Virus record (IMG/VR): IMGVR_UViG_3300045988_123528
Location: 1-38,159 of that record
Source of the DNA: a virus
Lineage: Duplodnaviria > Heunggongvirae > Uroviricota > Caudoviricetes
Length of the DNA stretch: 38,159 bases
Strand: one strand, 5' to 3'
Both the position numbers and the translations under genes were made by a program. This document shows, one piece after another, positions 7,047-37,920 of the stretch. Each line of letters opens with the position of its first letter. The first letter of the stretch is position 1. The notes below the pieces were generated by a model. The model was not told the origin of the DNA. It saw nothing but the letters and a program-made list of their open reading frames with translations, and did not search any database.

Positions 7047-7700
7047 TCAAAAATCCATTATTACTTGTTTGACAAGACCAACTATTCTGCAGTTCTCACC
7101 GCATTCAATAGTTTTATAGTTAGGATTTAGTGGGACGAGATACCTGTTCGGCCAGTCCTCAACAAATTTTTTGAGTGTCGCTTCTTGCCCACCATTGATA
7201 TGGGCAACAACGATTTTTCCGTTAATACACTCTGTATCAATAATATCTGGCTCTACGATAACGATAGAACCTTCTGGTATCGATGGTGAGCCGAGGGGAT
7301 TGGTCATTGAATCACCACGGACCCGTAGTGCAAATGCCATTTCTGATACAAGGGCGGTAGTATAAACCCACTCTTCAGCATCTTCTTTCCTGACACCAGG
7401 CTCCGTCATTGTCCATGAACCCGCCTGAACCCACGAGATGAGGGGGACTTTTTTAACTGCGAATATTTCAGGTTTTAGATTTATCTTTGGTTCAGGCGAG
7501 CCTTTTCCGCTAACAAGCCACAGAGGATCGCATTTAAGTGCGTTGGCTAGGGCTTGAAGGTTGGCTCCATTTGGTTGGTAGTCGTCCTTTTCCCATCCAG
7601 TAACCGTGACACGGTTCACACCAGTCAAATCAGCCAGTGCTTGTTGTGTCAGGTTCAGTTCTTTTCGCCTTTGGCGAATACGATCACTCATGTTCATCAT
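7047..7700 (-). CDS. cI: CI-type prophage repressor (N-terminal HTH, C-terminal S24 LexA-like peptidase)
   Basis: HTH LTQQALADLTGVNRVTV; Ala-Gly site (VQAGSW); GDSM Ser and LKKF Lys of the S24 dyad. Confidence 0.85.
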   Translation of the reverse strand: MMNMSDRIRQRRKELNLTQQALADLTGVNRVTVTGWEKDDYQPNGANLQALANALKCDPLWLVSGKGSPEPKINLKPEIFAVKKVPLISWVQAGSWTMTEPGVRKEDAEEWVYTTALVSEMAFALRVRGDSMTNPLGSPSIPEGSIVIVEPDIIDTECINGKIVVAHINGGQEATLKKFVEDWPNRYLVPLNPNYKTIECGENCRIVGLVKQVIMDF

Positions 7701-7763
7701 GTAGGCAATCCTACCACATGCCCATGTAGGATTCTTGACATTGGCATGTTGGATATCCTACAT
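7698..7763. promoter_or_regulatory. OR region with PR (rightward) and probable PRM
   Basis: Operator copies at about 7724-7741 (ATGTAGGATTCTTGACAT, contains TTGACA -35) and 7746-7763 (ATGTTGGATATCCTACAT); a degenerate third copy overlaps the cI start. Confidence 0.6.
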
Positions 7764-7795
7764 TTCTGCTTAACGTAATTTAACGGGAGACAGAA

Positions 7796-7993
7796 ATGCG
7801 GAAATCCGACGTGATTAATTATTTCGGCGGAGTTTGTAAAACCGCCGAAGCCCTAGGTATTAAGCATCCGTCTGTTTCAGAGTGGCCTGAGATTATTCCT
7901 GAAGGCCGAGCGTACCAGTTAGAAAAAATTACTAACGGGAAACTGAAAGTTGACGTGTCTTTATATCAAAAGACTAACAGTGCTGCGGCATAA
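7796..7993 (+). CDS. cro: Cro-like transcriptional regulator
   Basis: 65 aa, divergent from cI, SD GGGAGA; Cro/YdaS-like sequence. Confidence 0.65.
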   Translation: MRKSDVINYFGGVCKTAEALGIKHPSVSEWPEIIPEGRAYQLEKITNGKLKVDVSLYQKTNSAAA

Positions 7994-8020
7994 AAACACC
8001 ACAGAAATGAGGAATTAACC

Positions 8021-8605
8021 GTGGGTAAAGAACCTGAATGGAAAGTTGATAAACAACCAGCATGGCTGGTGGCAGCAATACGAAGAACGATTGCTGATTT
8101 ACCTCATGGCTATGAGGAAGCAGCAGAAATTCTTGGTTTGTATAAATCTGATGATATCACCCCAGCAAAAGATCAATTGCATAACAGACTGCGTAGCGGT
8201 GGGGATCAAATTTTTCCACTTGAGTGGGCCATGGTTTTACAGGATGCCAGTGGTACCAGGCATGTAACAGATGCAATAGCCCGTCGTAGTAATGGGGTGT
8301 TTGTGCCGCTGGTGGTCATTGATGACATTGACAATGGTGACATTAATCAGCGGCTGATGGAGTCAATAGAATGGATTGGCAAGCATTCCCAGTACTTACG
8401 CAAGGCAACTGCTGATGGAGTTATTGACCAGGCTGAGCGTGAGCAAATCGAAGAGAACAGCTACCAAGTAATGGCGAAGTGGCAGGAGCATTTAACACTG
8501 TTATTTCGTGTTTTTTGTGCGCCGGAAAAGAGTAACGCCCGCGAGTGTGCAGCTCCGGGCGTCGTGGCGTCGATTGCTTCTGGTTGTGGAGAAACTAACG
8601 CATGA
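8021..8605 (+). CDS. Putative early regulatory protein (CII/YdaT-like position)
   Basis: 194 aa directly downstream of cro; family assignment uncertain. Confidence 0.4.
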
Positions 8606-8940
8606 ACAGTTTAACAACACACTACCGTCGCTCGCAACTGATTGCACTTCCTGTACCGGGTGGAAAAGCGAAGGTGGAGTATTGCTATGCAGTGAATGTA
8701 CCAGGTGACAGGGAAATTGTAACCCACAGCTTTGCAGAGTGGGCTGTGGGTGATTTCAACCGGCAGAAGGAGACAGTCCTTTGCGACAAGTTAACCGCTG
8801 GTTCAAAGATCACTACGGAGTGCCCGTCAGAGTCATTCGTTGGGAGCCGGAAACACAACGGGTTATCTACCTCCGTGAAGGCTATGAACATGAATGCTTC
8901 AGTCCGGTCGAACAGTTTCGTCGTAAATTCAGGGAAATAG
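8602..8940 (+). CDS. Hypothetical protein, possibly the 5' part of a frameshift-split gene
   Basis: ATGA coupling to upstream gene; the C-terminal third looks non-protein-like. Confidence 0.3.
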
Positions 8941-8993
8941 AGGTCGGTCATGAGCCTGTTAATGACATCCCAGCCCATTGTGATAAATCGTGA
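8781..8993 (+). CDS. Hypothetical protein, possibly the 3' part of the same split gene
   Basis: Frame is -1 relative to 8602 ORF; TTG start with SD AAGGAG 7 nt upstream; protein-like composition. Confidence 0.35.
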
Positions 8994-9942
8994 TCTTGCA
9001 TGCCGTATTGGTCTGAATGAGGCAATTGTGTTGCAGCAGCTTCATTACTGGCTGAATGAAACGAATTCAGGCACTGAGCATGGCGGAATTCGCTGGGTTT
9101 ATAACACGACAGAACAGTGGCTGGAGCAGTTTCCGTTCTGGTCAGAGTCCACTCTGAAACGCACATTTGCAAGCCTGAAATCACTTGGGGTTTTGCGTCG
9201 CGAGCAACTCAATAAATCGAAGCGTGACATGACCAACTTCTACACGATCAACTATGAAAGTGAGCTTTTAGAAGAGGTCAAAGTGAACGAATCCATCAGG
9301 TCAAAATGCACTTCTCCATCTGGTCAAAGTGACCTGATGGATGGGCGCAAAATGACACGATCCATTGGTTCAAAACGACACGCTGTCATCGGGTCAAAAT
9401 GGCCCAATGATCTTACAGAGAATACAACAGAGATTACTACAGAGAATAAAACCTCTTCTCGTCCGGACGCTTCGCAACCGGACACGCAAACGGCTGAACA
9501 GGAGTTTTTAACTCGCCATCCTGATGCGGTTGTATTCAGCCCTAAAAAGCGCCAGTGGGGAACGCAGGATGATTTGACCTGCGCACAGTGGCTCTGGAAA
9601 AAAATCATCGCCCTGTACGAGCAAGCCGCCGAATGTGACGGCGAGGTGGTTCGTCCCAAAGAACCGAACTGGACAGCCTGGGCAAACGAAATTCGCCTGA
9701 TGTGTGTGCAGGATGGTCGTACTCACAAACAAATCTGCGAGATGTACAGCCGCGTCAGCCGCGATCCGTTCTGGTGCCGTAACGTGCTCAGCCCGTCGAA
9801 GCTGCGGGAAAAATGGGATGAGCTTTCCCTGCGCTTATCGCCGTCCGTAAGCACGTACACCGAAAAACGCGAAGACCCGTACTTCAAATCCAGTTACGAC
9901 AACGTGGACTACAGCCAGATCCCGGCAGGATTCAGGGGGTGA
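8950..9942 (+). CDS. Replication initiator (O-like) with central iteron-encoding linker and DnaT-like C-terminal domain
   Basis: 330 aa; iterons inside the gene; C-terminal domain resembles DnaT-type primosomal domains (recognition-based). Confidence 0.65.
   Translation: MSLLMTSQPIVINRDLACRIGLNEAIVLQQLHYWLNETNSGTEHGGIRWVYNTTEQWLEQFPFWSESTLKRTFASLKSLGVLRREQLNKSKRDMTNFYTINYESELLEEVKVNESIRSKCTSPSGQSDLMDGRKMTRSIGSKRHAVIGSKWPNDLTENTTEITTENKTSSRPDASQPDTQTAEQEFLTRHPDAVVFSPKKRQWGTQDDLTCAQWLWKKIIALYEQAAECDGEVVRPKEPNWTAWANEIRLMCVQDGRTHKQICEMYSRVSRDPFWCRNVLSPSKLREKWDELSLRLSPSVSTYTEKREDPYFKSSYDNVDYSQIPAGFRG
9271..9470. repeat. Putative replication origin: five GGTCAAA(A/G)TG-type iterons plus AT-rich repeat tract
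   Basis: Iteron cores at about 9276, 9299, 9322, 9367, 9391 (mostly 23 bp spacing), then ACAGAGA-rich AT tract. Confidence 0.6.
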
Positions 9943-10433
9943 TCATGAGTCTGTTAAATGACGTTCAGAAATTCATTGAAGCCCATCCGGGGTGTACTTC
10001 CGGAGACATTGCGGATGCTTTTGCAGGTTACTCACGGCAGCGCGTTCTGCAGTCAGCAAGCAAGTTACGTCAGAGTGGGCGTGTGGCTCACCGTTGTGAA
10101 GGAGATACACGCAGACATTTCCCACGCCTGACTGAGAGAGCGCAGGAGCCGGAACCACAACCAGTTCGTGAAACCAGACCTGTGCGCAATTTCTATGTCG
10201 GCACTAACGATCCCCGGGTGATTTTGTGCCTGACCCGCCAGGCGGAAGAACTGGAGTCCAGGGGCTTATACCGTCGTGCTGCAACGGTGTGGATGGCGGC
10301 ATTCCGTGAAAGCCACTCCCAGCCAGAACGAAACAATTTTCTGGCGCGTCGTGAGCAGTGTTTACGGAAAAGCAGCAAGCGCGCTGTATCGGGTGATGAG
10401 TGGTATCTGTCAGGGAATTACGTGGGGGCTTAA
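9939..10433 (+). CDS. PerC-like (Pch-like) regulator
   Basis: ELESRGLYRRAATVWMAAF recalled as the PerC-family signature; family call unverified. Confidence 0.4.
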   Translation: MIMSLLNDVQKFIEAHPGCTSGDIADAFAGYSRQRVLQSASKLRQSGRVAHRCEGDTRRHFPRLTERAQEPEPQPVRETRPVRNFYVGTNDPRVILCLTRQAEELESRGLYRRAATVWMAAFRESHSQPERNNFLARREQCLRKSSKRAVSGDEWYLSGNYVGA

Positions 10434-11086
10434 TGAGTAATAAATATTGCCAGGAGTTGGTGGAACTGCGGAACAAACCAGCCCATGAACTGAAGGAAGT
10501 GGGTGATCAGTGGCGCACGCCGGACAACATTTTCTGGGGAATTAACACCCTGTTTGGCCCGTTTGTTCTGGATCTGTTCACTGACGGTGATAACGCCAAA
10601 TGTGCTGCGTATTACACGGCGGAAGACAACGCGCTGGCGCATGACTGGTCAGAACGTCTTGCGGAGCTTAAAGGGGCTGCCTTTGGTAATCCCCCATACA
10701 GCCGCGCCAGTCAGCATGAGGGGCAATACATCACCGGCATGCGTTACATCATGAAACATGCCAGTGCCATGCGTGATAAGGGTGGGCGCTATGTTTTCCT
10801 GATCAAAGCTGCCACCAGCGAAGTGTGGTGGCCGGAAGATGCGGACCATATTGCTTTTATTCGCGGGCGTATTGGTTTTGAACTGCCTGCCTGGTTTATC
10901 CCGAAGGATGAGAAGCAGGTGCCGACAGGCGCTTTCTTCGCTGGTGCTATTGCTGTTTTCGACAAGACCTGGAAGGGACCGGCAATTAGCTACATCGGGC
11001 GCGATGAACTTGAGGCATGTGGTGAGGCGTTTCTGGCGCAGGTTCGCCAGCAGGCGGAAAAACTGGTCAGGGAGATGGCGGCATGA
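10433..11086 (+). CDS. Phage DNA N6-adenine methyltransferase (orphan, Dam-like)
   Basis: WRTPDNIF...DLFTDGDN...AFGNPPYS motifs; start ATG overlaps upstream stop. Confidence 0.75.
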   Translation: MSNKYCQELVELRNKPAHELKEVGDQWRTPDNIFWGINTLFGPFVLDLFTDGDNAKCAAYYTAEDNALAHDWSERLAELKGAAFGNPPYSRASQHEGQYITGMRYIMKHASAMRDKGGRYVFLIKAATSEVWWPEDADHIAFIRGRIGFELPAWFIPKDEKQVPTGAFFAGAIAVFDKTWKGPAISYIGRDELEACGEAFLAQVRQQAEKLVREMAA

Positions 11087-11409
11087 CGACGTTAACTCAA
11101 TGCCAGCAGCAGGTGCTGGATATGCTGATTTCTTACCAGCAAGAACGTGGCTTCCCGCCAACTAATCAGGAGGTGGCAACCATGCTGGGATACCGTTCAG
11201 TGAATGCAGCGGTGGAGCATCTTCGCGCACTGGAGAAAAAAGGCGTCATCACGATAAAGCGTGGCGTGGCCCGGGGGATAACGCTTCATACCGCGGTGAA
11301 GGACGACGACAGCGAGGCGGTCGGGATTATCCGCGCACTGCTTGCCGGTGAGGAAAACGCAAGGCTGCGTGCAACCCACTGGTTACATGAGAGGGACCTG
11401 AAAGTATGA
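11083..11409 (+). CDS. LexA N-terminal DNA-binding-domain-like protein lacking the S24 peptidase domain
   Basis: 108 aa; QQVLDMLISYQQERGFPPTNQEVATMLGYRSVNAAVEHLRALEKKGVI closely parallels the LexA DNA-binding domain; no Ala-Gly/Ser-Lys module. Confidence 0.6.
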   Translation: MTTLTQCQQQVLDMLISYQQERGFPPTNQEVATMLGYRSVNAAVEHLRALEKKGVITIKRGVARGITLHTAVKDDDSEAVGIIRALLAGEENARLRATHWLHERDLKV

Positions 11410-11795
11410 AGCTGATCCTGCCTTTTCCGCCCAGCGTGAACACGTACTGGAGACACCCCAACAAAGGGGCGTTTGCTGGTAAGAGCCTGATAAGCGCGGC
11501 GGGGCGAAAATTCCAGAGCGCGGCGTGCGCAGCAATAGTTGAGCAGTTACGTCGTCTGCCGAAACCAACGTCGGCACCTGCTTCAGTGGAGATCGTGTTA
11601 TTTCCTCCGGATAACCGGATCCGCGATCTGGACAACTATAACAAGGCGCTGTTTGACGCCCTGACCCACGCGGGTGTGTGGGAAGACGACAGTCAGGTGA
11701 AAAGAATGCTGGTGGAGTGGGGACCGGTTATCCCGGAAGGGAAGGTCGAGATCACTATCAGTAAGTACGAGAAAACGGCGGGTGCAGCCGCCTGA
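11406..11795 (+). CDS. rusA: RusA Holliday junction resolvase
   Basis: 129 aa; LPFPPSVNTYWRH and RDLDNYNKALFDALT match RusA signatures. Confidence 0.85.
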   Translation: MKLILPFPPSVNTYWRHPNKGAFAGKSLISAAGRKFQSAACAAIVEQLRRLPKPTSAPASVEIVLFPPDNRIRDLDNYNKALFDALTHAGVWEDDSQVKRMLVEWGPVIPEGKVEITISKYEKTAGAAA

Positions 11796-11814
11796 TCAAG
11801 AGGAGAAACGAAGT

Positions 11815-12624
11815 ATGAATAATCTGATGGTCATTGATGGTATTGAAGTTCGTCGTGATGCTTATGGGCGTTACAGCCTGAACGATCTGCATCGCGCAGC
11901 AGTAGCATCTGGTGCAAATGCCAGAACCAAGGAGCCGGGGAAGTTTCTTTCCAGCCAACAAACTGTTGAGCTTGTTCATGAATTGACCAACACCCAGAAT
12001 TTGGGTGTTGACCCGGTGAGTGTGATTCATGGGGGAAATGAACGGGGAACTTATGTCTGCAAGGAACTGGTGTATGCCTATGCAATGTGGATCAGCCCGT
12101 CATTCCATCTGAAGGTGATCCGTACTTTCGATATGGTAACCAGCGCACCGGAAAAATTATCCGGACAGGCTGCTGACAAGATGCAGGCTGGTGTGATTCT
12201 GCTGGACTTTATGCGCCGGGAGTTAAACCTGTCTAACTCTTCAGTGCTTGGTGCCTGTCAGAAACTCCAGGAGGCTGTTGGCTTACCGAATCTGGCACCG
12301 CGCTATGCCATTGATGCTCCTGCTGATGCACACGATGGCTCAAGTCGCCCGACACTGTCACTGAGTGCACTGCTGAAACAGTATGGTATCCGCCTGACGG
12401 CTAATCAGGCATATCACCAGATGGTGAAGCTGGGGATCGTCGAGCAGCGCGAACGATACAGCCGTACCGCGATTAACAACATCAAAAAATTCTGGTCGCT
12501 GACAGCGAAAGGCTGCATGTTCGGCAAGAACATCACCAGTCCCGCAAATCCGCGTGAGACGCAGCCGCATTTCTTCGAATCCCGATTCCCTGAGCTGTTA
12601 AAGCTGCTCGATACCGTTCATTGA
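11815..12624 (+). CDS. KilA-N domain protein with antirepressor-like C-terminal domain
   Basis: KilA-N motifs (YVCKELVYAYAMWISPSFHLKVIRTFD); SD GAGGAG upstream of this ATG. Confidence 0.65.
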   Translation: MNNLMVIDGIEVRRDAYGRYSLNDLHRAAVASGANARTKEPGKFLSSQQTVELVHELTNTQNLGVDPVSVIHGGNERGTYVCKELVYAYAMWISPSFHLKVIRTFDMVTSAPEKLSGQAADKMQAGVILLDFMRRELNLSNSSVLGACQKLQEAVGLPNLAPRYAIDAPADAHDGSSRPTLSLSALLKQYGIRLTANQAYHQMVKLGIVEQRERYSRTAINNIKKFWSLTAKGCMFGKNITSPANPRETQPHFFESRFPELLKLLDTVH

Positions 12625-12625
12625 G

Positions 12626-13621
12626 GTGACTGTGAGAGCACTACTGACCCCTGAAATTGCCCCGCGTATGGGGATCGTATTGTTCAGACCAGGTTCAGAG
12701 CTGATGCCCCTGTTTATGCAGGGGCGTGTCCTGCTGGAGCCTGAGCCGGAACGTTATTCATCTTTCGCCAGTGGTGCCGTTCCGGCGGCATCACAACCGC
12801 TGGCGGATGATCCTGCCGTTCGGGCCGTGTTCCGCAATGAGGCAGTGATCCGTCGTGCTGGTGGAGTGGAATGTCTTGAAAGCTGGTTACTTCGTGAAAA
12901 AGGCTGCCAGTGGCCTCATTCCGACTGGCACAGCGAGAACATGACCACAATGCGACACGCTCCGGGTGCAATCCGTCTGTGCTGGCACTGCGATAACCAG
13001 CTGCGCGATCAGTTCACGGAACGGCTGGAATCAATGGCAACGGATAACTGTGCCCGCTGGGTGTTATCTGTTGTGCGCCGTGATCTCGGTTTTGATGATA
13101 GTCACGTTGTGACAATGCCGGAACTGTGCTGGTGGCTGGTTCGTAATGACCTGGCTGATGCCTTACCGGAAAGTGCAGCCCGTAAGGCACTGAGATTACC
13201 GAAGCCTGTTGTGCCGTCTGTCACCCGGGAGAGTGACCTTGTTCCTTCGGTTCCTGCCACCAGCATTATCCAGGATAAAGCGAAAAAGGTGCTGGCGCTG
13301 AAAGTGGATCCAGAGTCGCCGGAGTCTTTTATGTTACGCCCAAAACGTCGCCGCTGGGTTAATGAAAAGTACACGCGCTGGGTTAAGACACAGCCGTGTG
13401 CATGTTGTGGAAAGCCTGCTGATGATCCCCATCACCTGATAGGCCACGGTCAGGGTGGAATGGGTACAAAAGCGCATGACCTCTTTGTGTTGCCTTTGTG
13501 CAGAAAGCATCACGACGAGCTGCATGCGGATACCGTGGCATTTGAAGAGATGTATGGTTCCCAGCTGGAGCTGATATTTCGTTTTATCGATCGTGCGCTG
13601 GCAATAGGCGTACTGGCGTAA
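12626..13621 (+). CDS. DUF968-family protein with C-terminal Cys/His cluster
   Basis: 331 aa; CACCGKPADDPHH...LCRKHHDELH; GTG start, exact start uncertain. Confidence 0.5.
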   Translation: MTVRALLTPEIAPRMGIVLFRPGSELMPLFMQGRVLLEPEPERYSSFASGAVPAASQPLADDPAVRAVFRNEAVIRRAGGVECLESWLLREKGCQWPHSDWHSENMTTMRHAPGAIRLCWHCDNQLRDQFTERLESMATDNCARWVLSVVRRDLGFDDSHVVTMPELCWWLVRNDLADALPESAARKALRLPKPVVPSVTRESDLVPSVPATSIIQDKAKKVLALKVDPESPESFMLRPKRRRWVNEKYTRWVKTQPCACCGKPADDPHHLIGHGQGGMGTKAHDLFVLPLCRKHHDELHADTVAFEEMYGSQLELIFRFIDRALAIGVLA

Positions 13622-13634
13622 GTGGAGAACGAGC

Positions 13635-14387
13635 ATGAACCTTGAAGCCTTACCAAAATATTACTCCCCAAAATCTCCAAAATTGAGCGATGACGCACCG
13701 GCGACAGGCTCAGGTGGTTTAACGATTACGGATGTGATGGCTGCGCAGGGGATGGTGCAGTCGAAAGCACCGCTTGGGTTTGCCTTATTCCTGGCAAAAG
13801 TTGGTGTTCAGGATCCTCAATTTGCGATTGAAGGTCTGCTCAATTACGCGATGGCACTGGATAACCCGACATTGAACAAATTGAGTGAAGAAACCCGGTT
13901 ACAGATCATCCCTTACCTTGTGAATTTTGCCTTTGCTGATTATTCCAGGTCTGCGGCAAGTAAGGCTCGCTGTGAGCATTGTGCTGGTACTGGATTTCAT
14001 AATGTATTGCGCGAAGTGGTGAAACACTCCAGAAGCGGGGAATCTGTTATCAAGGAAGAGTGGGTGAAGGAACTATGTCAGCATTGTCATGGTAAGGGAG
14101 AAGTCAGCACAGCGTGCAGAGGGTGTAAGGGTAAAGGTATTGTCCTGGATGAAAAAAGGACCCGGCTTCATGGCACGCCTGTTTATAAGATTTGTGGGCG
14201 TTGCAATGGAAATCGGTTTAGCCGTTTACCAACCACACTGGCGCGGCATCATGTCCAGAAGCTGGTACCAGACCTGACGGATTATCAGTGGTACAAAGGA
14301 TATGCAGATGTCATTGATAAACTGGTGACAAAGTGCTGGCAGGAAGAAGCATATGCTGAGGCGCAATTAAGAAAAGTGACGAGATAA
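13635..14387 (+). CDS. Late antitermination protein Q (QuuQ-like)
   Basis: 250 aa, Cys-rich zinc-finger motifs; sits immediately upstream of a PR'/tR' unit and the lysis genes. Confidence 0.7.
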   Translation: MNLEALPKYYSPKSPKLSDDAPATGSGGLTITDVMAAQGMVQSKAPLGFALFLAKVGVQDPQFAIEGLLNYAMALDNPTLNKLSEETRLQIIPYLVNFAFADYSRSAASKARCEHCAGTGFHNVLREVVKHSRSGESVIKEEWVKELCQHCHGKGEVSTACRGCKGKGIVLDEKRTRLHGTPVYKICGRCNGNRFSRLPTTLARHHVQKLVPDLTDYQWYKGYADVIDKLVTKCWQEEAYAEAQLRKVTR

Positions 14388-15871: not shown

Positions 15872-16335
15872 GCAGAGTCACCGCGATTATTTATGCTCTG
15901 GTTATCTGCATCATCGTCTGCCTGTCGTGGGCGGTCAATCATTACCGTGATAACGCCATCGCCTACAAAGAACAGCGTGATAAAAAAGTCAGTGAGCTGA
16001 AGCAGGCGACCGCCACCATTACTGACATGCAGATGCGTCAGCGTGATGTTGCTGCGCTCGATGCAAAATACACGAAGGAGTTAGCTGATGCGAAAGCTGA
16101 AAATGATGCTCTTCGGCGCAAGCTTGATAATGGTGGTCGGGTGCTCGTCAAAGGAAAATGCTCTGTGCCATCCTCAGCCGAAACCTCCAGCGCCTCCGGC
16201 ATGGGCAATGATGCCACCGTCGAACTCTCTCCAGTTGCTGGACGAAACGTTCTCGGTATCCGGGACGGAATTATCCGCGACCAAACAGCACTGAGAACGC
16301 TTCAGGAATACATCAGGACGCAATGCCTTCGATGA
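15868..16335 (+). CDS. Rz: Rz i-spanin
   Basis: N-terminus [30 protein letters not shown] matches lambda Rz. Confidence 0.9.
16088..16294 (+). CDS. Rz1: Rz1 o-spanin lipoprotein, embedded in Rz in the +1 frame
   Basis: KLKMML...VVGC lipobox followed by a proline-rich segment, wholly inside Rz. Confidence 0.85.
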
Positions 16336-16698
16336 TAGCGATAATTTTACTCATCATCCTTCACATTTGGCTCTGTAGACAGGGTGGTGATCACTTCTGG
16401 AGTGAATCCAGATTAAATATCTCATTGCTGATGCTTGATATTGAGCATCTTGCGCGCGGTAAGGGGCTGCGTTGAGATAAGAGCCAGTCATTACAAATAC
16501 CAGGATTTAGCCTCGTATTCGCGGGGCTTTTTATTGTCATTACAAAAGCCACTCCCTACAGAGTGGCTTTGATAATGGTTTATACCCTACACGGGATAAC
16601 TTAACTGATATCCCTTTTAACGGATAAACGGAGCCAACAATGGCAGAGAATGTCGGCATTATGGCAGTTAAATTTGGATAAATCGGAGATTAGTACAT

Positions 16699-17049
16699 AT
16701 GCCGCCACGAATCCCGAAAGCCTGCCGTGCTCGAGGTTGCCGTAATACCACCACTGACCCGTCAGGCTATTGCGAAAGCCACAAAAGCGAAGGCTGGAAG
16801 CAATACAAACCTGGACAATCCCGTCATCAGCGCGGCTACGGTTCGAAGTGGGACAGTATCCGCGCGCGTGTCCTGAAGCGTGACAAAGGCCTGTGTCAGT
16901 TATGTCTGCGTTCTGGTGTGGTGCGTGAGGCGAAAACTGTTGACCACATCATCCCTAAAGCGCATGGCGGCACTGATGCTGACAGTAATCTGCAGAGTCT
17001 GTGCTGGCCGTGTCATAAGGCGAAGACGGCCCGTGAACGGTTAAAGTGA
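16699..17049 (+). CDS. HNH endonuclease (terminase-associated)
   Basis: Cys-rich HNH motifs (CQLC...DHIIPKAHGG...CWPCH); directly upstream of the terminase genes. Confidence 0.8.
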   Translation: MPPRIPKACRARGCRNTTTDPSGYCESHKSEGWKQYKPGQSRHQRGYGSKWDSIRARVLKRDKGLCQLCLRSGVVREAKTVDHIIPKAHGGTDADSNLQSLCWPCHKAKTARERLK

Positions 17050-17673: not shown

Positions 17674-19407
17674 ATGAGCCGGAAATCTTACCCCAACGTA
17701 AATGCAGCCAATCAGTATGCCCGTGATGTCGTGCGCGGAAAGATTGTGGCCTGCCAGTTTGTGATTCAGGCCTGCCAGCGCCATCTTGATGACCTGATGG
17801 CGGAAAAAAGTAAGTCGTTTCGTTACCGCTTCGACAAGGACCTGGCTGAACGGGCCGCCAAATTTATTCAGCTGTTGCCGCATACCAAGGGTGAGTGGGC
17901 ATTCAAACGGATGCCCATCACGCTGGAGCCGTGGCAGCTCTTTGTGATCTGCTGTGCGTTTGGCTGGGTCAATAAAGGTACCCGGCTGCGCCGCTTCCGG
18001 GAGGTGTATACCGAAATCCCCCGTAAGAACGGCAAATCGGCAATCTCTGCCGGTGTCGCCCTGTATTGTTTTGCCTGTGATAACGAGTTTGGCGCGGAAG
18101 TGTATTCCGGTGCCACGACAGAGAAACAGGCGTGGGAAGTCTTTCGCCCGGCGCGACTGATGTGTAAACGCACACCCATGCTGACGGAAGCGTTCGGGAT
18201 TGAGGTTAACGCCTCAAACATGAACCGTCCGGAGGATGGCGCGCGGTTTGAACCGCTGATCGGTAACCCCGGTGATGGTTCATCACCCCACTGTGCGGTG
18301 GTGGATGAATATCACGAGCACGCCACCGATGCGCTTTATACCACGATGCTTACCGGGATGGGGGCGCGACGTCAGCCACTGATGTGGGCCATCACCACCG
18401 CCGGGTACAACATTGAGGGGCCGTGCTACGACAAGCGGCGGGAAGTTATCGAGATGCTCAACGGTTCGGTACCCAACGATGAACTGTTCGGGATCATCTA
18501 TACCGTTGACGAAGGCGATGACTGGACCGACCCGCAGGTGCTGGAAAAAGCCAACCCGAATATTGGCGTGTCGGTTTATCGCGAATTTTTGTTAAGTCAG
18601 CAGCAGCGTGCGAAAAATAACGCCCGTCTGGCAAACGTCTTTAAAACAAAACACCTCAATATCTGGGTGTCGGCGCGTTCGGCGTATTTCAACCTGGTGA
18701 GCTGGCAGAGCTGCGAGGATAAATCACTGACCCTTGAGCAGTTCGAGGGGCAGCCGTGCATTCTGGCCTTTGACCTGGCGCGTAAGCTGGATATGAACAG
18801 CATGGCGCGACTTTATACCCGCGAGATTGACGGTAAAACGCATTACTACAGTGTGGCCCCGCGTTTCTGGGTACCGTATGACACGGTGTACAGCGTCGAG
18901 AAAAATGAAGATCGCCGGACAGCCGAACGCTTTCAGAAATGGGTGGAAATGGGCGTTCTGACTGTTACCGCTGGTGCGGAGGTGGATTATCGCTACATCC
19001 TCGAGGAGGCCAAAGCGGCGAACAAAATCAGCCCGGTCAGTGAGTCACCCATCGACCCCTTCGGGGCGACCGGGCTGTCGCATGACCTTGCTGATGAAGA
19101 CCTGAACCCCATCACCATCATTCAGAACTACACCAACATGTCCGATCCGATGAAAGAGCTGGAAGCGGCGATTGAATCGGGGCGCTTTCATCATGACGGC
19201 AATCCCATCATGACCTGGTGTATCGGCAACGTGGTCGGCAAAACCATTCCGGGTAACGATGATGTGGTGAAGCCTGTCAAGGAGCAGGCGGAAAACAAAA
19301 TCGATGGTGCGGTTGCACTGATTATGGCGATCGGTCGGGCAATGCTCAAAGAACCCGACGATTTCCTCTCATCTCTTGATCCGGACGATGTTCTCTTAAT
19401 TCTATGA
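17674..19407 (+). CDS. Terminase large subunit
   Basis: 577 aa; ATPase and nuclease regions typical of HK97-type large terminases. Confidence 0.9.
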
Positions 19408-35091: not shown

Positions 35092-35118
35092 AAACGCCCC
35101 TTATGGGGCGTATTTTGC
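35092..35118. terminator. Bidirectional terminator between tail genes and the acyltransferase
   Basis: ACGCCCC TTAT GGGGCGT hairpin plus T-run; overlaps the acyltransferase stop. Confidence 0.7.
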
Positions 35119-36270
35119 TGCTTGCACGTTATTCTTTGGAAGAATTTTATTTGATAAATAATTGGAAAATTTTATCGCGTTATCATCAATTAGCAATTTA
35201 AAAATTAAAGCTGCAAGTATTGAAGATAATAAAGTGATTGGGAAAGTAATAAGTAAAGACTTTCCGTATGAAACTCCTGCATCACCAAGCTTAATTACGA
35301 TCAAAGAAGATATTGAAGCTATTAATGGAAAATGCACCAGATAAAGAGAGTATGATACATCTCCAAGAAATTTACAGGTTTTTGTTTTGAATAAATTTGA
35401 GATAACTATTGATTTATCAATTGCTATAATAAGAAACATTGAACCAAAGGCTTGAGAAACAATTCTCAAATCAAAGTAAGTTATGTCACTGTTATTTATC
35501 CAGATACTATGTTCAGTTATAAAATATGGGTATGAACCTAGGTAACATCCTAGTAAAATAAACATAAAGATAATTGTGGTATTAATTTTCTTTATATTAA
35601 CTGAAACATCTGCACAAATCACCCCTAATATAAATCCTATTAGATGACTTGAGCTAAATACCACAATACCTAAAGTATAAAAAGCAAACCTAATTCTGGT
35701 AGTGCAAACTAGTGGGACCAGAACGAGTACAAGAATTGAGCCAACCAATTCGGTGTGAATGGTCCATAATACTGGGTTTAATGTTTGAACTCCGTAAAAA
35801 TATGTACCAATACCCCCTTCCCATACCGCATTCAGTAATGTCATTGTAGTTGGCATCGCTGGGATTACTTGTGATAAAGAGTACACTGCAGTTTCTGATG
35901 AATGAAATCCAATCGTTGTCATCAGAATAAAGGAAAATATAGTAGATGCAATGGTAGGTATTGCAAGACGTGGGTATCTCTTGATAATGGATTTAGAGTA
36001 CCATTCTAGCCCCTTCCCTTTGAAAAAGGGAATCGATAGAACCATTCCACTCAAAACGAAGAAAAGCATTACGGCAAAGTGACCATTATATAATATATTA
36101 AATGGAGTTTCACTTATGTATTTCTCTCCATAATGATCTATCTGATTTTGAACAAAAACAGATGGTAGAAAGAATTGCATGAAATGGCTTATTAAAACTA
36201 TCAAGCAAGCTATACCACGAATACCATCCAGTGCGTGATCTCGGGAAGGCGTCGTTAATTGTTGAACCAT
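35101..36270 (-). CDS. Acyltransferase family 3 integral membrane protein (OafA/Oac-like)
   Basis: LDGIRGIACLIVLISHF N-terminal motif and many TM segments; AT-rich relative to the rest of the prophage; SD GAGGA before this ATG. Confidence 0.8.
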   Translation of the reverse strand: MVQQLTTPSRDHALDGIRGIACLIVLISHFMQFFLPSVFVQNQIDHYGEKYISETPFNILYNGHFAVMLFFVLSGMVLSIPFFKGKGLEWYSKSIIKRYPRLAIPTIASTIFSFILMTTIGFHSSETAVYSLSQVIPAMPTTMTLLNAVWEGGIGTYFYGVQTLNPVLWTIHTELVGSILVLVLVPLVCTTRIRFAFYTLGIVVFSSSHLIGFILGVICADVSVNIKKINTTIIFMFILLGCYLGSYPYFITEHSIWINNSDITYFDLRIVSQAFGSMFLIIAIDKSIVISNLFKTKTCKFLGDVSYSLYLVHFPLIASISSLIVIKLGDAGVSYGKSLLITFPITLLSSILAALIFKLLIDDNAIKFSNYLSNKILPKNNVQAAKYAP

Positions 36271-36512
36271 CAATTCCTCACACATTGTAATAAAGTATTA
36301 AAATAAAATAGTAAAAGCAGAATATACAAATACGAAAAGCGGAATTATACTTTACAAGAGTGCTTGATGCTATTGTTTTGTCGAGATTTATAATCTGATC
36401 TTCTGTAGATGTTGTCCTGGCATTGTCCAATCATGATCTATGGGCTGGCTGGCGAACTTTCGATAGTGCGAGTATTGAATGATTTCCAGCCGTTACCGAT
36501 TTTACGTGTTAA

Positions 36513-36773: not shown

Positions 36774-36825
36774 ATACTGTGTTTGTATACAGTATTATTT
36801 TTAACTGTATGGATAAACAGTGTCA
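36774..36825 (-). promoter_or_regulatory. SOS-regulated promoter with two LexA boxes
   Basis: TACTGTGTTTGTATACAGTA and AACTGTATGGATAAACAGTG (CTGT-N8-ACAG); minus-strand TTGACA-17-TAAAAT; coordinates +/-2. Confidence 0.75.
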
Positions 36826-37920
36826 AGAGGTCTTATTTCTGCTCCTTTGGAGCTCTTCAAAACGATTATGTAAAGATTTCGGATACAGTTCGGTATATAC
36901 CTGCCATAGCACGTTTAATGAACGATGCCCTGTAACCTGGGCGACTTCCTCAATACTAAAACCAGCCTCAAATAAGCGACTTGCCCCTTCTCTACGCAAA
37001 TCATGGTATCGCAGATCTTTAATACCTAATTTGCTTCTTACCCTCTGGAATCCCGCAGTAACAGAAGTGCTGTTATATGGAAAAATGAATTCTGATTTTT
37101 TGGGTTGTCGTTGGACGATATCCCAGGCTTCCCCAAGCAAGGCTACTTTCATATGGTTGCCTTCCTTTTTACGTGGATCTTTCCTGTCTCTTACGAGTAT
37201 GGATTTTTGTTCCTGATCGAGATCCTCCCATCGTAATCGGCATACTTCACCGATTCGCATACATGACCACACAGAAAATTTGAGGATATCAACGAACGGA
37301 ATTTTTGAGCATTTATGTGTAGATCGTTGTTGAAGACCTTCAATGAGCATGTCCAGTTCATCAGATGCCGGTCTACGATTACGACGATTTGATTTACCAA
37401 TTAAACCAAGTTTAAGTAGATATGGACGAGCGGCTTTTGCTGGGTTTGATGTGTAATTAATTCCATATACAGGTTTGGCAGCATCCAGAACACTACCAAG
37501 ATAACTAACATCGTGGCTAACTGTAGCTGGACCTGCACCAGCGTTGTTTCTTAGCCTGCAATGTTCAATTACGTCATTTTCTGTCAGTTCAGATAGTTTG
37601 ATCGCGGAGATGTCACTATCCATAAGCAGTTCCAGCACATATCTTTTAGTACGGCCTGCTTTACCTCCGGCATTTGGGTCATTTAAATATTTGTGTAGTA
37701 AGTCACGGACTGTAAGTCCGTCAACTGCATTTGATGATGGAATGCCATATAGATCTAATTCCATCACTTTCTGTGTGCCCCATGTTTTGGCATGAGCATG
37801 TTTAGGGAATGTTTTGCTTTCCCTGTAAGTGATAACACCTTTTTCTTTGATAATCACATTACAGCGATAGCGTGGTGTGCCATCGGATTTTAGTCGTTTC
37901 TCTATGTTATAGTACGCCAT
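36823..37920 (-). CDS. int: Tyrosine integrase (dusA-associated integrase type)
   Basis: 365 aa; catalytic R..HDLRR..H...Y motifs; adjacent to the dusA junction. Confidence 0.9.
   Translation of the reverse strand: MAYYNIEKRLKSDGTPRYRCNVIIKEKGVITYRESKTFPKHAHAKTWGTQKVMELDLYGIPSSNAVDGLTVRDLLHKYLNDPNAGGKAGRTKRYVLELLMDSDISAIKLSELTENDVIEHCRLRNNAGAGPATVSHDVSYLGSVLDAAKPVYGINYTSNPAKAARPYLLKLGLIGKSNRRNRRPASDELDMLIEGLQQRSTHKCSKIPFVDILKFSVWSCMRIGEVCRLRWEDLDQEQKSILVRDRKDPRKKEGNHMKVALLGEAWDIVQRQPKKSEFIFPYNSTSVTAGFQRVRSKLGIKDLRYHDLRREGASRLFEAGFSIEEVAQVTGHRSLNVLWQVYTELYPKSLHNRFEELQRSRNKTS

Follow-up and report, generated by a model that had tools for sequence, protein, structure and literature searches.

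The present study concerns yfdN, a small gene that lies in the early region of a temperate phage. The window, by which is meant the whole stretch of 38,159 nucleotides that was analysed (IMG/VR record IMGVR_UViG_3300045988_123528), is an SfV/mEp460-like prophage and appears to be complete. It contains, at 9939/9945-10433 on the + strand, an intact open reading frame (ORF) which starts at GTG 9939 or ATG 9945, ends with TAA at 10431-10433 and codes for 164 or 162 amino acids. The annotation pipeline PGAP chooses the alternative GTG start at 9939 (164 amino acids). However, ATG 9945 is more likely to be the true start, because a Shine-Dalgarno-like AGGGGG, read from the sequence at 9934..9939 (+), lies 5 nt 5' of it and because 17 of 25 distant YfdN homologues open with MS[LIM]. 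The coding sequence is therefore given here as 9945..10433 (+), 162 codons plus stop, and all residue numbers follow this 162-amino-acid form. The call is drawn from the ORF list, the sequence itself, the identity to K-12 YfdN, the RefSeq annotation and phrog_1324. A scan for repeats and palindromes found none inside the gene which could serve as binding sites for its own product.

The window protein is 96% identical to YfdN of E. coli K-12 (b2357, cryptic prophage CPS-53) over all 164 residues, and phrog_1324 matches it over its full length with an E value of 4e-78. Identical DNA in other strains bears the RefSeq/PGAP name "yfdN: PerC family transcriptional regulator". The temperate phage is SfV/mEp460/CPS-53-like and the ORF is its yfdN-type gene; RefSeq and Pfam already record this gene, its PerC family label and how widely it is distributed. 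The 495-bp gene matched 2674 of 5426 complete E. coli genomes, K-12 being among the carriers. It is also present in many lambdoid phages: 49 phage records match its DNA at 95% or above, among them mEp460 (99.2%), Shiga toxin (Stx) phages of the Stx2a and Stx2c types and Shigella phage SfIV, and the phage copies are 97-99% identical to the window gene. Phage SfV matched the yfdN region in a search with the whole window. The same gene is carried by Stx2a and Stx2c phages of O157 and by O26, O103 and O111-type genomes. YfdN of CPS-53/KpLE1 and the orthologues in mEp460, SfV, SfIV and the Stx2c phages are the same gene as that of the window, with nothing material different. The gene order of CPS-53 is also that of the window, namely yfdO (a replication remnant), yfdN and yfdM (a methyltransferase remnant), but CPS-53 is decayed whereas the window prophage is apparently complete. 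Frameshifted or read-through variants of yfdN are numerous in public collections (P0099, P0023/P0024, P0034/P0035, P0240); these are fusions to Dam or RusA frames or have internally shifted frames, and indicate frequent decay or assembly errors at the locus in cryptic copies.

A model of YfdN was built with AlphaFold2 on 16 full-length homologues (mean predicted local distance difference test score, pLDDT, 76.9). It divides the protein into four parts, all encoded on the + strand. Amino acids 1-60 (9945..10124) form a predicted winged helix-turn-helix (wHTH) domain, to which AlphaFold2, Foldseek and weak profile matches all point. The predicted helices span residues 3-13, 19-25 and 31-44 and are followed by a hairpin at 47-52/55-60, with pLDDT of 83-91. 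When compared with the PDB by Foldseek, this part matched SmtB/ArsR, MarR/MepR/SlyA, BlaI/MecI, DsrD, Z-alpha and SSV1 F-93, with root-mean-square deviations of 2-3 Å over about 60 residues, a probability of 1.0 and E values of 0.03-0.1. Among viral predicted structures Foldseek returned winged-helix matches only, and no analogue of full-length YfdN. At the level of profiles, the window protein has a weak match to the MarR-type phrog_1687 (E 6.5e-5), and among 25 of its relatives Penicillinase_R is matched in 6 and MarR_2 in 5 (best E 2.2e-5). The predicted domain resembles the minimal winged-helix domains of MarR/MepR, ArsR/SmtB, BlaI/MecI, F-93 and PapI/FaeA in topology and size, but it lacks the dimerisation helices of the MarR/ArsR proteins. 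In terms of the model, YfdN could dimerise only by way of its PerC-like core.

The second part is a linker (amino acids 61-89; 10125..10211) which is predicted to be disordered. It is rich in proline and glutamate and variable in length and sequence; pLDDT is below 50 for residues 63-84, and across 25 representatives the linker is 9-31 amino acids long with no conserved column. It leads to a three-helix core (amino acids 90-149; 10212..10391) which resembles PerC and the ANR family, as judged from PF06069, a sub-threshold match to the ANR_neg_reg profile and the AlphaFold2 model. The helices 90-105, 109-122 and 126-149 are predicted with pLDDT of about 90, and a three-helix unit was again obtained when the core was modelled alone. 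The last part is a C-terminal tail of low pLDDT (amino acids 150-162; 10392..10430) which stands in place of the C-terminal third of PerC and Pch. It contains the motif W-Y-L-S-G-N-Y-V-G at 10401-10427, of which the subfamily form is W-x-L-[SA]-G-x-[YF]-x-G.

An earlier note on this DNA had recognised a PerC-family signature in the ORF, had called the product a PerC-like (Pch-like) regulator in the replication/nin region, and had suggested possible cross-talk between the prophage and host regulation. The signature is indeed there: ELESRGLYRRAATVWMAAF is found by translation at amino acids 102-120 (10248..10304, +) and pairs with YLEEKGFYRRAADRWAEIM of PerC from enteropathogenic E. coli (EPEC) in the BLASTP alignment. 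A search with the Pfam profile for PerC (PF06069) also agrees, as it gave 39.0 bits (E 1e-9) for amino acids 98-151, window 10236-10397, against a gathering cut-off of 22.6 bits. The placement of the gene is correct as well, since it comes directly after the replication gene and before those for Dam, a LexA-like protein, RusA, KilA-N, DUF968 and Q. As regards the regulator itself, the family call holds for a core of about 50 residues. However, YfdN is not a look-alike of PerC or Pch, as their C-terminal third is absent and a domain has been added.

This is evident from a comparison with two proteins: EPEC PerC, encoded on pMAR2 next to perA/perB, and a PerC-family protein of the O55:H7 plasmid pDEC5B-4, which is Pch-like by length and profile score only. 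EPEC PerC (89 amino acids) scores 143 bits against PF06069 over profile positions 1-90 and the plasmid protein (104 amino acids) 136 bits over positions 1-89, whereas the window YfdN (162 amino acids) with its 39 bits covers only positions 5-58 of the 90 (54/90) and leaves positions 59-90 unmatched. In BLASTP the window protein is 32% identical to EPEC PerC over 56 amino acids (E 2e-7) and 39% identical to the plasmid protein over 51 amino acids (E 1e-8). Cluster representatives P0250, P0212 and P0246 were considered as canonical Pch proteins and rejected, as cluster names and tblastn showed that they are not canonical. The pairwise alignments show the signature residues LE-x-x-GL-x-RRAA, W and RR-x-x-C in the window YfdN, and what it has in common with EPEC PerC and Pch is a core of about 55 residues, N-terminal in the latter proteins, LE-x-[KR]-G-L/F-x-RRAA...W, ER, RR-x-x-C, at 32-39% identity. 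All three are encoded on mobile elements. On the other hand, PerC and Pch have a single domain and a length of 89-104 amino acids, match the profile as a whole at 136-143 bits and carry a C-terminal segment ...A..T...MG[LIM]....FR which is absent from YfdN. The PerC family as a whole has a single-domain size of about 85-105 amino acids, while YfdN carries an N-terminal winged helix, a linker and a tail of its own. Unlike PerC and Pch, YfdN has no known activity at the enterocyte effacement locus (LEE).

The two-domain design is not a peculiarity of the window. When 1.84 billion cluster representatives were searched with a profile, only 153 clusters came out at E <=0.001; about 30 of these are two-domain proteins of 133-165 amino acids and most others consist of the core only (55-118 amino acids). 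Twenty-five two-domain representatives, 23-47% identical to YfdN, were aligned. The wHTH-linker-core architecture is kept in all 25 and the tail in most, and every one of them matches PF06069 at E 0.1 or better. In the N-terminal domain P15 and G16 are nearly invariant, and the hydrophobic core and the basic positions of helix 3 and the wing are conserved. L103, R111, A112 and R136 of the PerC-like core are invariant, with A100, G107 and C139 nearly so, and the tail glycines G157 and G161 are found in 20 and 22 of the 25 respectively. Both the N-terminal domain and the core are net basic in nearly all members. It is evident from this pattern of conservation in the alignment that a real two-domain protein has been kept under purifying selection.

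It should be noted that the core may also be related to the ANR family. Besides YfdN, sub-threshold matches to the NCBIfam profile ANR_neg_reg (NF033650) were found in EPEC PerC, in the Pch-like plasmid protein and in four further members of the PerC family (E 5e-7 to 2e-3). ANR proteins carry a highly conserved cysteine (PMC4038620), and the ANR-type trait of three helices with a cysteine in the last one is seen in YfdN, whose C139 is present in 24 of the 25 representatives. From the common sub-threshold matches and the parallel at C139 it is suggested, though not proven, that PerC, Pch, YfdN and ANR probably have one small three-helix module in common.

The position of yfdN in the prophage bears on when the protein would be made. 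The ORFs profiled between 7047 and 14387 code for a cI-like repressor, a CII-like protein, an unassigned protein of 112 amino acids, the replication protein, Dam, the LexA-like protein, RusA, KilA-N, DUF968 and Q. The cI-like gene (7047-7700, HTH_3 and Peptidase_S24) is on the - strand. Divergent from it is a putative pR-like promoter picked up by a consensus scan at 7735..7764 (+), with TTGACA, 18 nt and TACATT, and the palindrome ATGTTGGATATCCTACAT at 7746-7763, which overlaps its -10 region, is likely to be the operator for the repressor. The consensus scan found no other promoter-like site on the + strand between 7121 and 15000, and this site is probably the promoter of the operon that contains yfdN. 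The replication gene (8950..9942, +), named "replication protein" or O in matching phages, ends in a TGA at 9940-9942 which falls between the AGGGGG and ATG 9945 of yfdN, and the stop of yfdN overlaps the ATG of the methyltransferase gene in TAATG at 10431-10435. Such abutting and overlapping starts and stops suggest that the three genes are translationally coupled. As yfdN is located inside a repressor-controlled early-right operon with no separate promoter-like site, it is probably a delayed-early gene, repressed in the lysogen and expressed only after induction.

Taken with the predicted structure, these observations lead us to propose, with moderate confidence, that YfdN is a DNA-tethered early phage regulator or anti-silencer whose PerC/ANR-like core remodels complexes of nucleoid proteins or regulators. 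The pR-like promoter, under repressor control, would drive transcription of yfdN soon after induction or infection and not in a quiescent lysogen. The N-terminal winged helix, going by its predicted fold, would bind DNA, and the basic core could oligomerise, contact nucleoid-associated or regulatory proteins, or do both; the precedents for such contacts are Pch, by which H-NS/StpA/Hha complexes are displaced, and Aar, which binds H-NS and activators of the AraC type. The tail could be a short docking motif. YfdN would in this way modulate or anti-silence transcription, mainly of the phage's own programme, and host genes would be affected incidentally, while induction is under way. It has been shown that Pch activates LEE1 only by relieving silencing by H-NS/StpA/Hha and that its association with DNA extends to many loci (PMC4764244). 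A more far-reaching form of the proposal, which we put forward only tentatively and consider rather doubtful, is that YfdN-type proteins are a distinct phage and satellite subfamily, undescribed in the literature searched. Here the winged helix would tether to DNA a PerC/ANR module that bears the conserved tail motif, so that an early product could locally dismantle H-NS-type or other regulator complexes on phage DNA, and PerC, Pch and ANR would be trimmed, domesticated derivatives or relatives of an anti-silencing module from phage.

A number of points weigh against the proposal of a DNA-tethered regulator. DNA binding by the N-terminal domain is read from the predicted fold and from Foldseek E values of 0.03-0.1, and no curated HTH profile of Pfam matches YfdN itself. 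A sequence search of the PDB yielded no solved homologue of the PerC-like core, and the isolated core matched in Foldseek nothing but three-helix folds of a generic TPR/MIT-like kind, all weakly (E >=0.28); these matches were not used for homology. The match of the window YfdN to ANR_neg_reg, 22.5 bits (E 7.5e-5), is below the cut-off of 32. H-NS was not co-precipitated by PchA in the work of Fukui et al. (PMC4764244), and direct contact with H-NS is thus unestablished even for Pch. As to the promoter, it was assigned by a consensus scan only. The K-12 RefSeq entry for YfdN still reads "uncharacterized protein", and the literature searched yielded no experiment on a protein of the YfdN type. 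The gene does occur in published data sets: the yfdN clone was among those with an altered glycogen phenotype in an overexpression screen of the ASKA collection, yfdN falls within multi-gene hit regions in screens of UTI89, and it is present beside other prophage genes in a nitric-oxide transcriptome table of CFT073.

It could also be that YfdN works as an ANR-like anti-regulator through protein contacts alone, the core sequestering a regulator of the host or of a competitor element (an H-NS-family or AraC-family protein or a repressor) and the N-terminal domain being a module for partner binding or dimerisation. Aar is a three-helix protein which, having no DNA-binding domain, acts by binding AggR and H-NS (PMC5570504), and the PerC-like protein of the phage-inducible chromosomal island (PICI) EcCIMP1 is a repressor (PMC11773190). 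Such a mode is favoured by the sub-threshold matches to ANR that run through the whole of the PerC family and by the weak TPR/MIT-like resemblance of the core, a typical peptide-binding fold. Members of the ANR family (Aar, Rnr, Cnr) resemble YfdN in that their core, of similar length, consists of three helices and has a conserved cysteine in the last of them. However, they are only 39-80 amino acids long, have no DNA-binding domain and are usually encoded beside the gene of an AraC/XylS-family activator (PMC4038620), whereas YfdN has 162 amino acids and a predicted wHTH, scores below the family cut-off and lacks an AraC neighbour: none of the ten ORFs profiled at 7047-14387 codes for an AraC-family protein. 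The full wHTH topology predicted for the N-terminal domain, with basic residues kept in helix 3 and the wing, is most simply read as DNA binding. Action by protein contacts alone is accordingly regarded as unlikely.

The idea of cross-talk with host virulence, in which a PerC/Pch-type activator of the prophage would switch on host virulence loci such as LEE via ler, found no support and is quite improbable. It can draw on the significant PerC profile match with the common core motif, on the presence of the same gene in the Stx phages of O157 and in the O26, O103 and O111-type genomes, and on the fact that Uhlich et al., who refer to yfdN as "the K12 unique PerC homologue", thought it worth deleting as a precaution from a K-12 ler-lacZ reporter (PMC5931665). 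However, the profile is matched only at positions 5-58, without the C-terminal third of PerC and Pch; the gene occurs in about half of the complete E. coli genomes, including K-12; and it lies inside a repressed early operon. Moreover, activation of ler is confined to PerC and the group-1 Pch proteins (A, B and C) and is not seen with PchD or PchE, PchE repressing the curli genes csgD and csgA and lowering adhesion to HEp-2 cells (PMC6265319). Over-expressed PchE acts on adhesion through fliC, that is, through flagella (PMC7369912), and the EcCIMP1 protein represses LEE1 (PMC11773190). PchD and PchE are located on OI-43/48 and the P4-like OI-51 and have been described as smaller variants (PMC3378721). 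From this location and size, it appears that the YfdN type is not represented among the five Pch proteins tested. Thus, LEE-type cross-talk is unlikely as a conserved role of YfdN.

There is equally little probability that YfdN is an accessory of the replication and methylation genes next to it, such as a controller of the methyltransferase or a modulator of the initiator. In the window yfdN shows tight coupling on both sides, with the replication gene upstream and with the methyltransferase gene downstream. The order replication gene, YfdN-like gene, adenine methyltransferase, usually a LexA-like gene, RusA, in some cases KilA-N, DUF968 and Q is kept in divergent relatives. The slot 3' of YfdN-like genes holds three unrelated families of adenine methyltransferase in the window and four other loci (L005, L006, L007 and L008), namely Dam (PF05869), MT-A70 (PF05063) and MethyltransfD12 (PF02086). 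However, gene order is positionally conserved in lambdoid phages anyway, and in many E. coli prophages the LexA-like gene directly follows yfdN with no methyltransferase in between, by which the link to the methyltransferase is downgraded. In the divergent relatives the replication gene upstream is either of the HTH_36 and Phg_2220_C type or of the lambda P type. The most distant two-domain members are found without either neighbour, one in a PICI-like element with integrase and AlpA and another beside recET genes. From such varied neighbours it follows that YfdN-like genes associate with the early regions of phages and satellites generally and not with one partner gene. YfdN as a helicase loader in place of lambda P was rejected, since in one relative a lambda-P gene immediately precedes the YfdN-like gene.

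Lambda Ren occupies the same position as yfdN, being the first gene after the replication genes. Residues 3-67 of YfdN have a weak PHROG match to the Ren-like phrog_142 (E 0.015; hhalign probability 13%). Unlike YfdN, Ren has no PerC-like part, and homology is not established.

Several other features of the prophage were recorded. Counterparts of the replication gene in relatives carry HTH_36 and Phg_2220_C. Within the window copy there are iteron-like repeats at 9291-9452: three copies and one inverted copy of CATC-N-GGTCAAAATG at 9291-9342, and three TACAGAGAATAC-like units with 12-nt spacing at 9414-9452. Together they resemble an origin of the lambda style that lies within the gene of the initiator. 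The gene that follows yfdN (10433..11086, +) codes for a Dam-family N6-adenine methyltransferase (PF05869, 156 bits); PADLOC matched it as MTase_II and gave no defence-system match for YfdN. The LexA-like gene (11083-11409, +) encodes 108 amino acids which comprise essentially the LexA DNA-binding domain only (PF01726, 69 bits, amino acids 1-65), without the S24 peptidase domain, and relatives have versions of 105-162 amino acids in the same slot. The protein would be non-cleavable and might bind SOS boxes.

Downstream of RusA, KilA-N and DUF968 is the gene for the Q antiterminator (13635-14387), after which come the lysis genes, an HNH endonuclease, the terminase and the head and tail genes. 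A closely related prophage in E. coli PK8241 has a gene for a 'GrlR family regulatory protein' between its lysis and HNH endonuclease genes, at 17841-18161 of that locus (L001); the corresponding gap of the window (about 16335-16699) holds no ORF of 60 amino acids or more. Near the left end of the window, a SocA/Panacea antitoxin-like gene (720-1292, +) overlaps an ORF of 139 amino acids (1289-1708, +) which has no family match. The two may be a toxin-antitoxin or defence pair, for which PADLOC gave no match. Towards the right end an Oac-like acyltransferase gene (Acyl_transf_3; 35101-36285, -) lies beside the integrase gene (36823-37920, -), and this resembles the surface-modification cargo beside the integrase of K-12 CPS-53, where intS is followed by yfdG/H/I.

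By the label "PerC family transcriptional regulator" YfdN is made to look closer to PerC than it is, as it is the core alone that the two have in common. For the same reason yfdN-type genes, such as those in Stx phages, should not be credited with a LEE-type function, and the idea of virulence cross-talk is a stock guess drawn from the annotation. The gene has a fixed position in the early operon, and its design of wHTH, linker, PerC/ANR-like core and tail recurs in many phages of Enterobacterales. It thus offers a handle on the PerC/ANR module, which is poorly understood, and the presence of yfdN in K-12 makes it easy to study.

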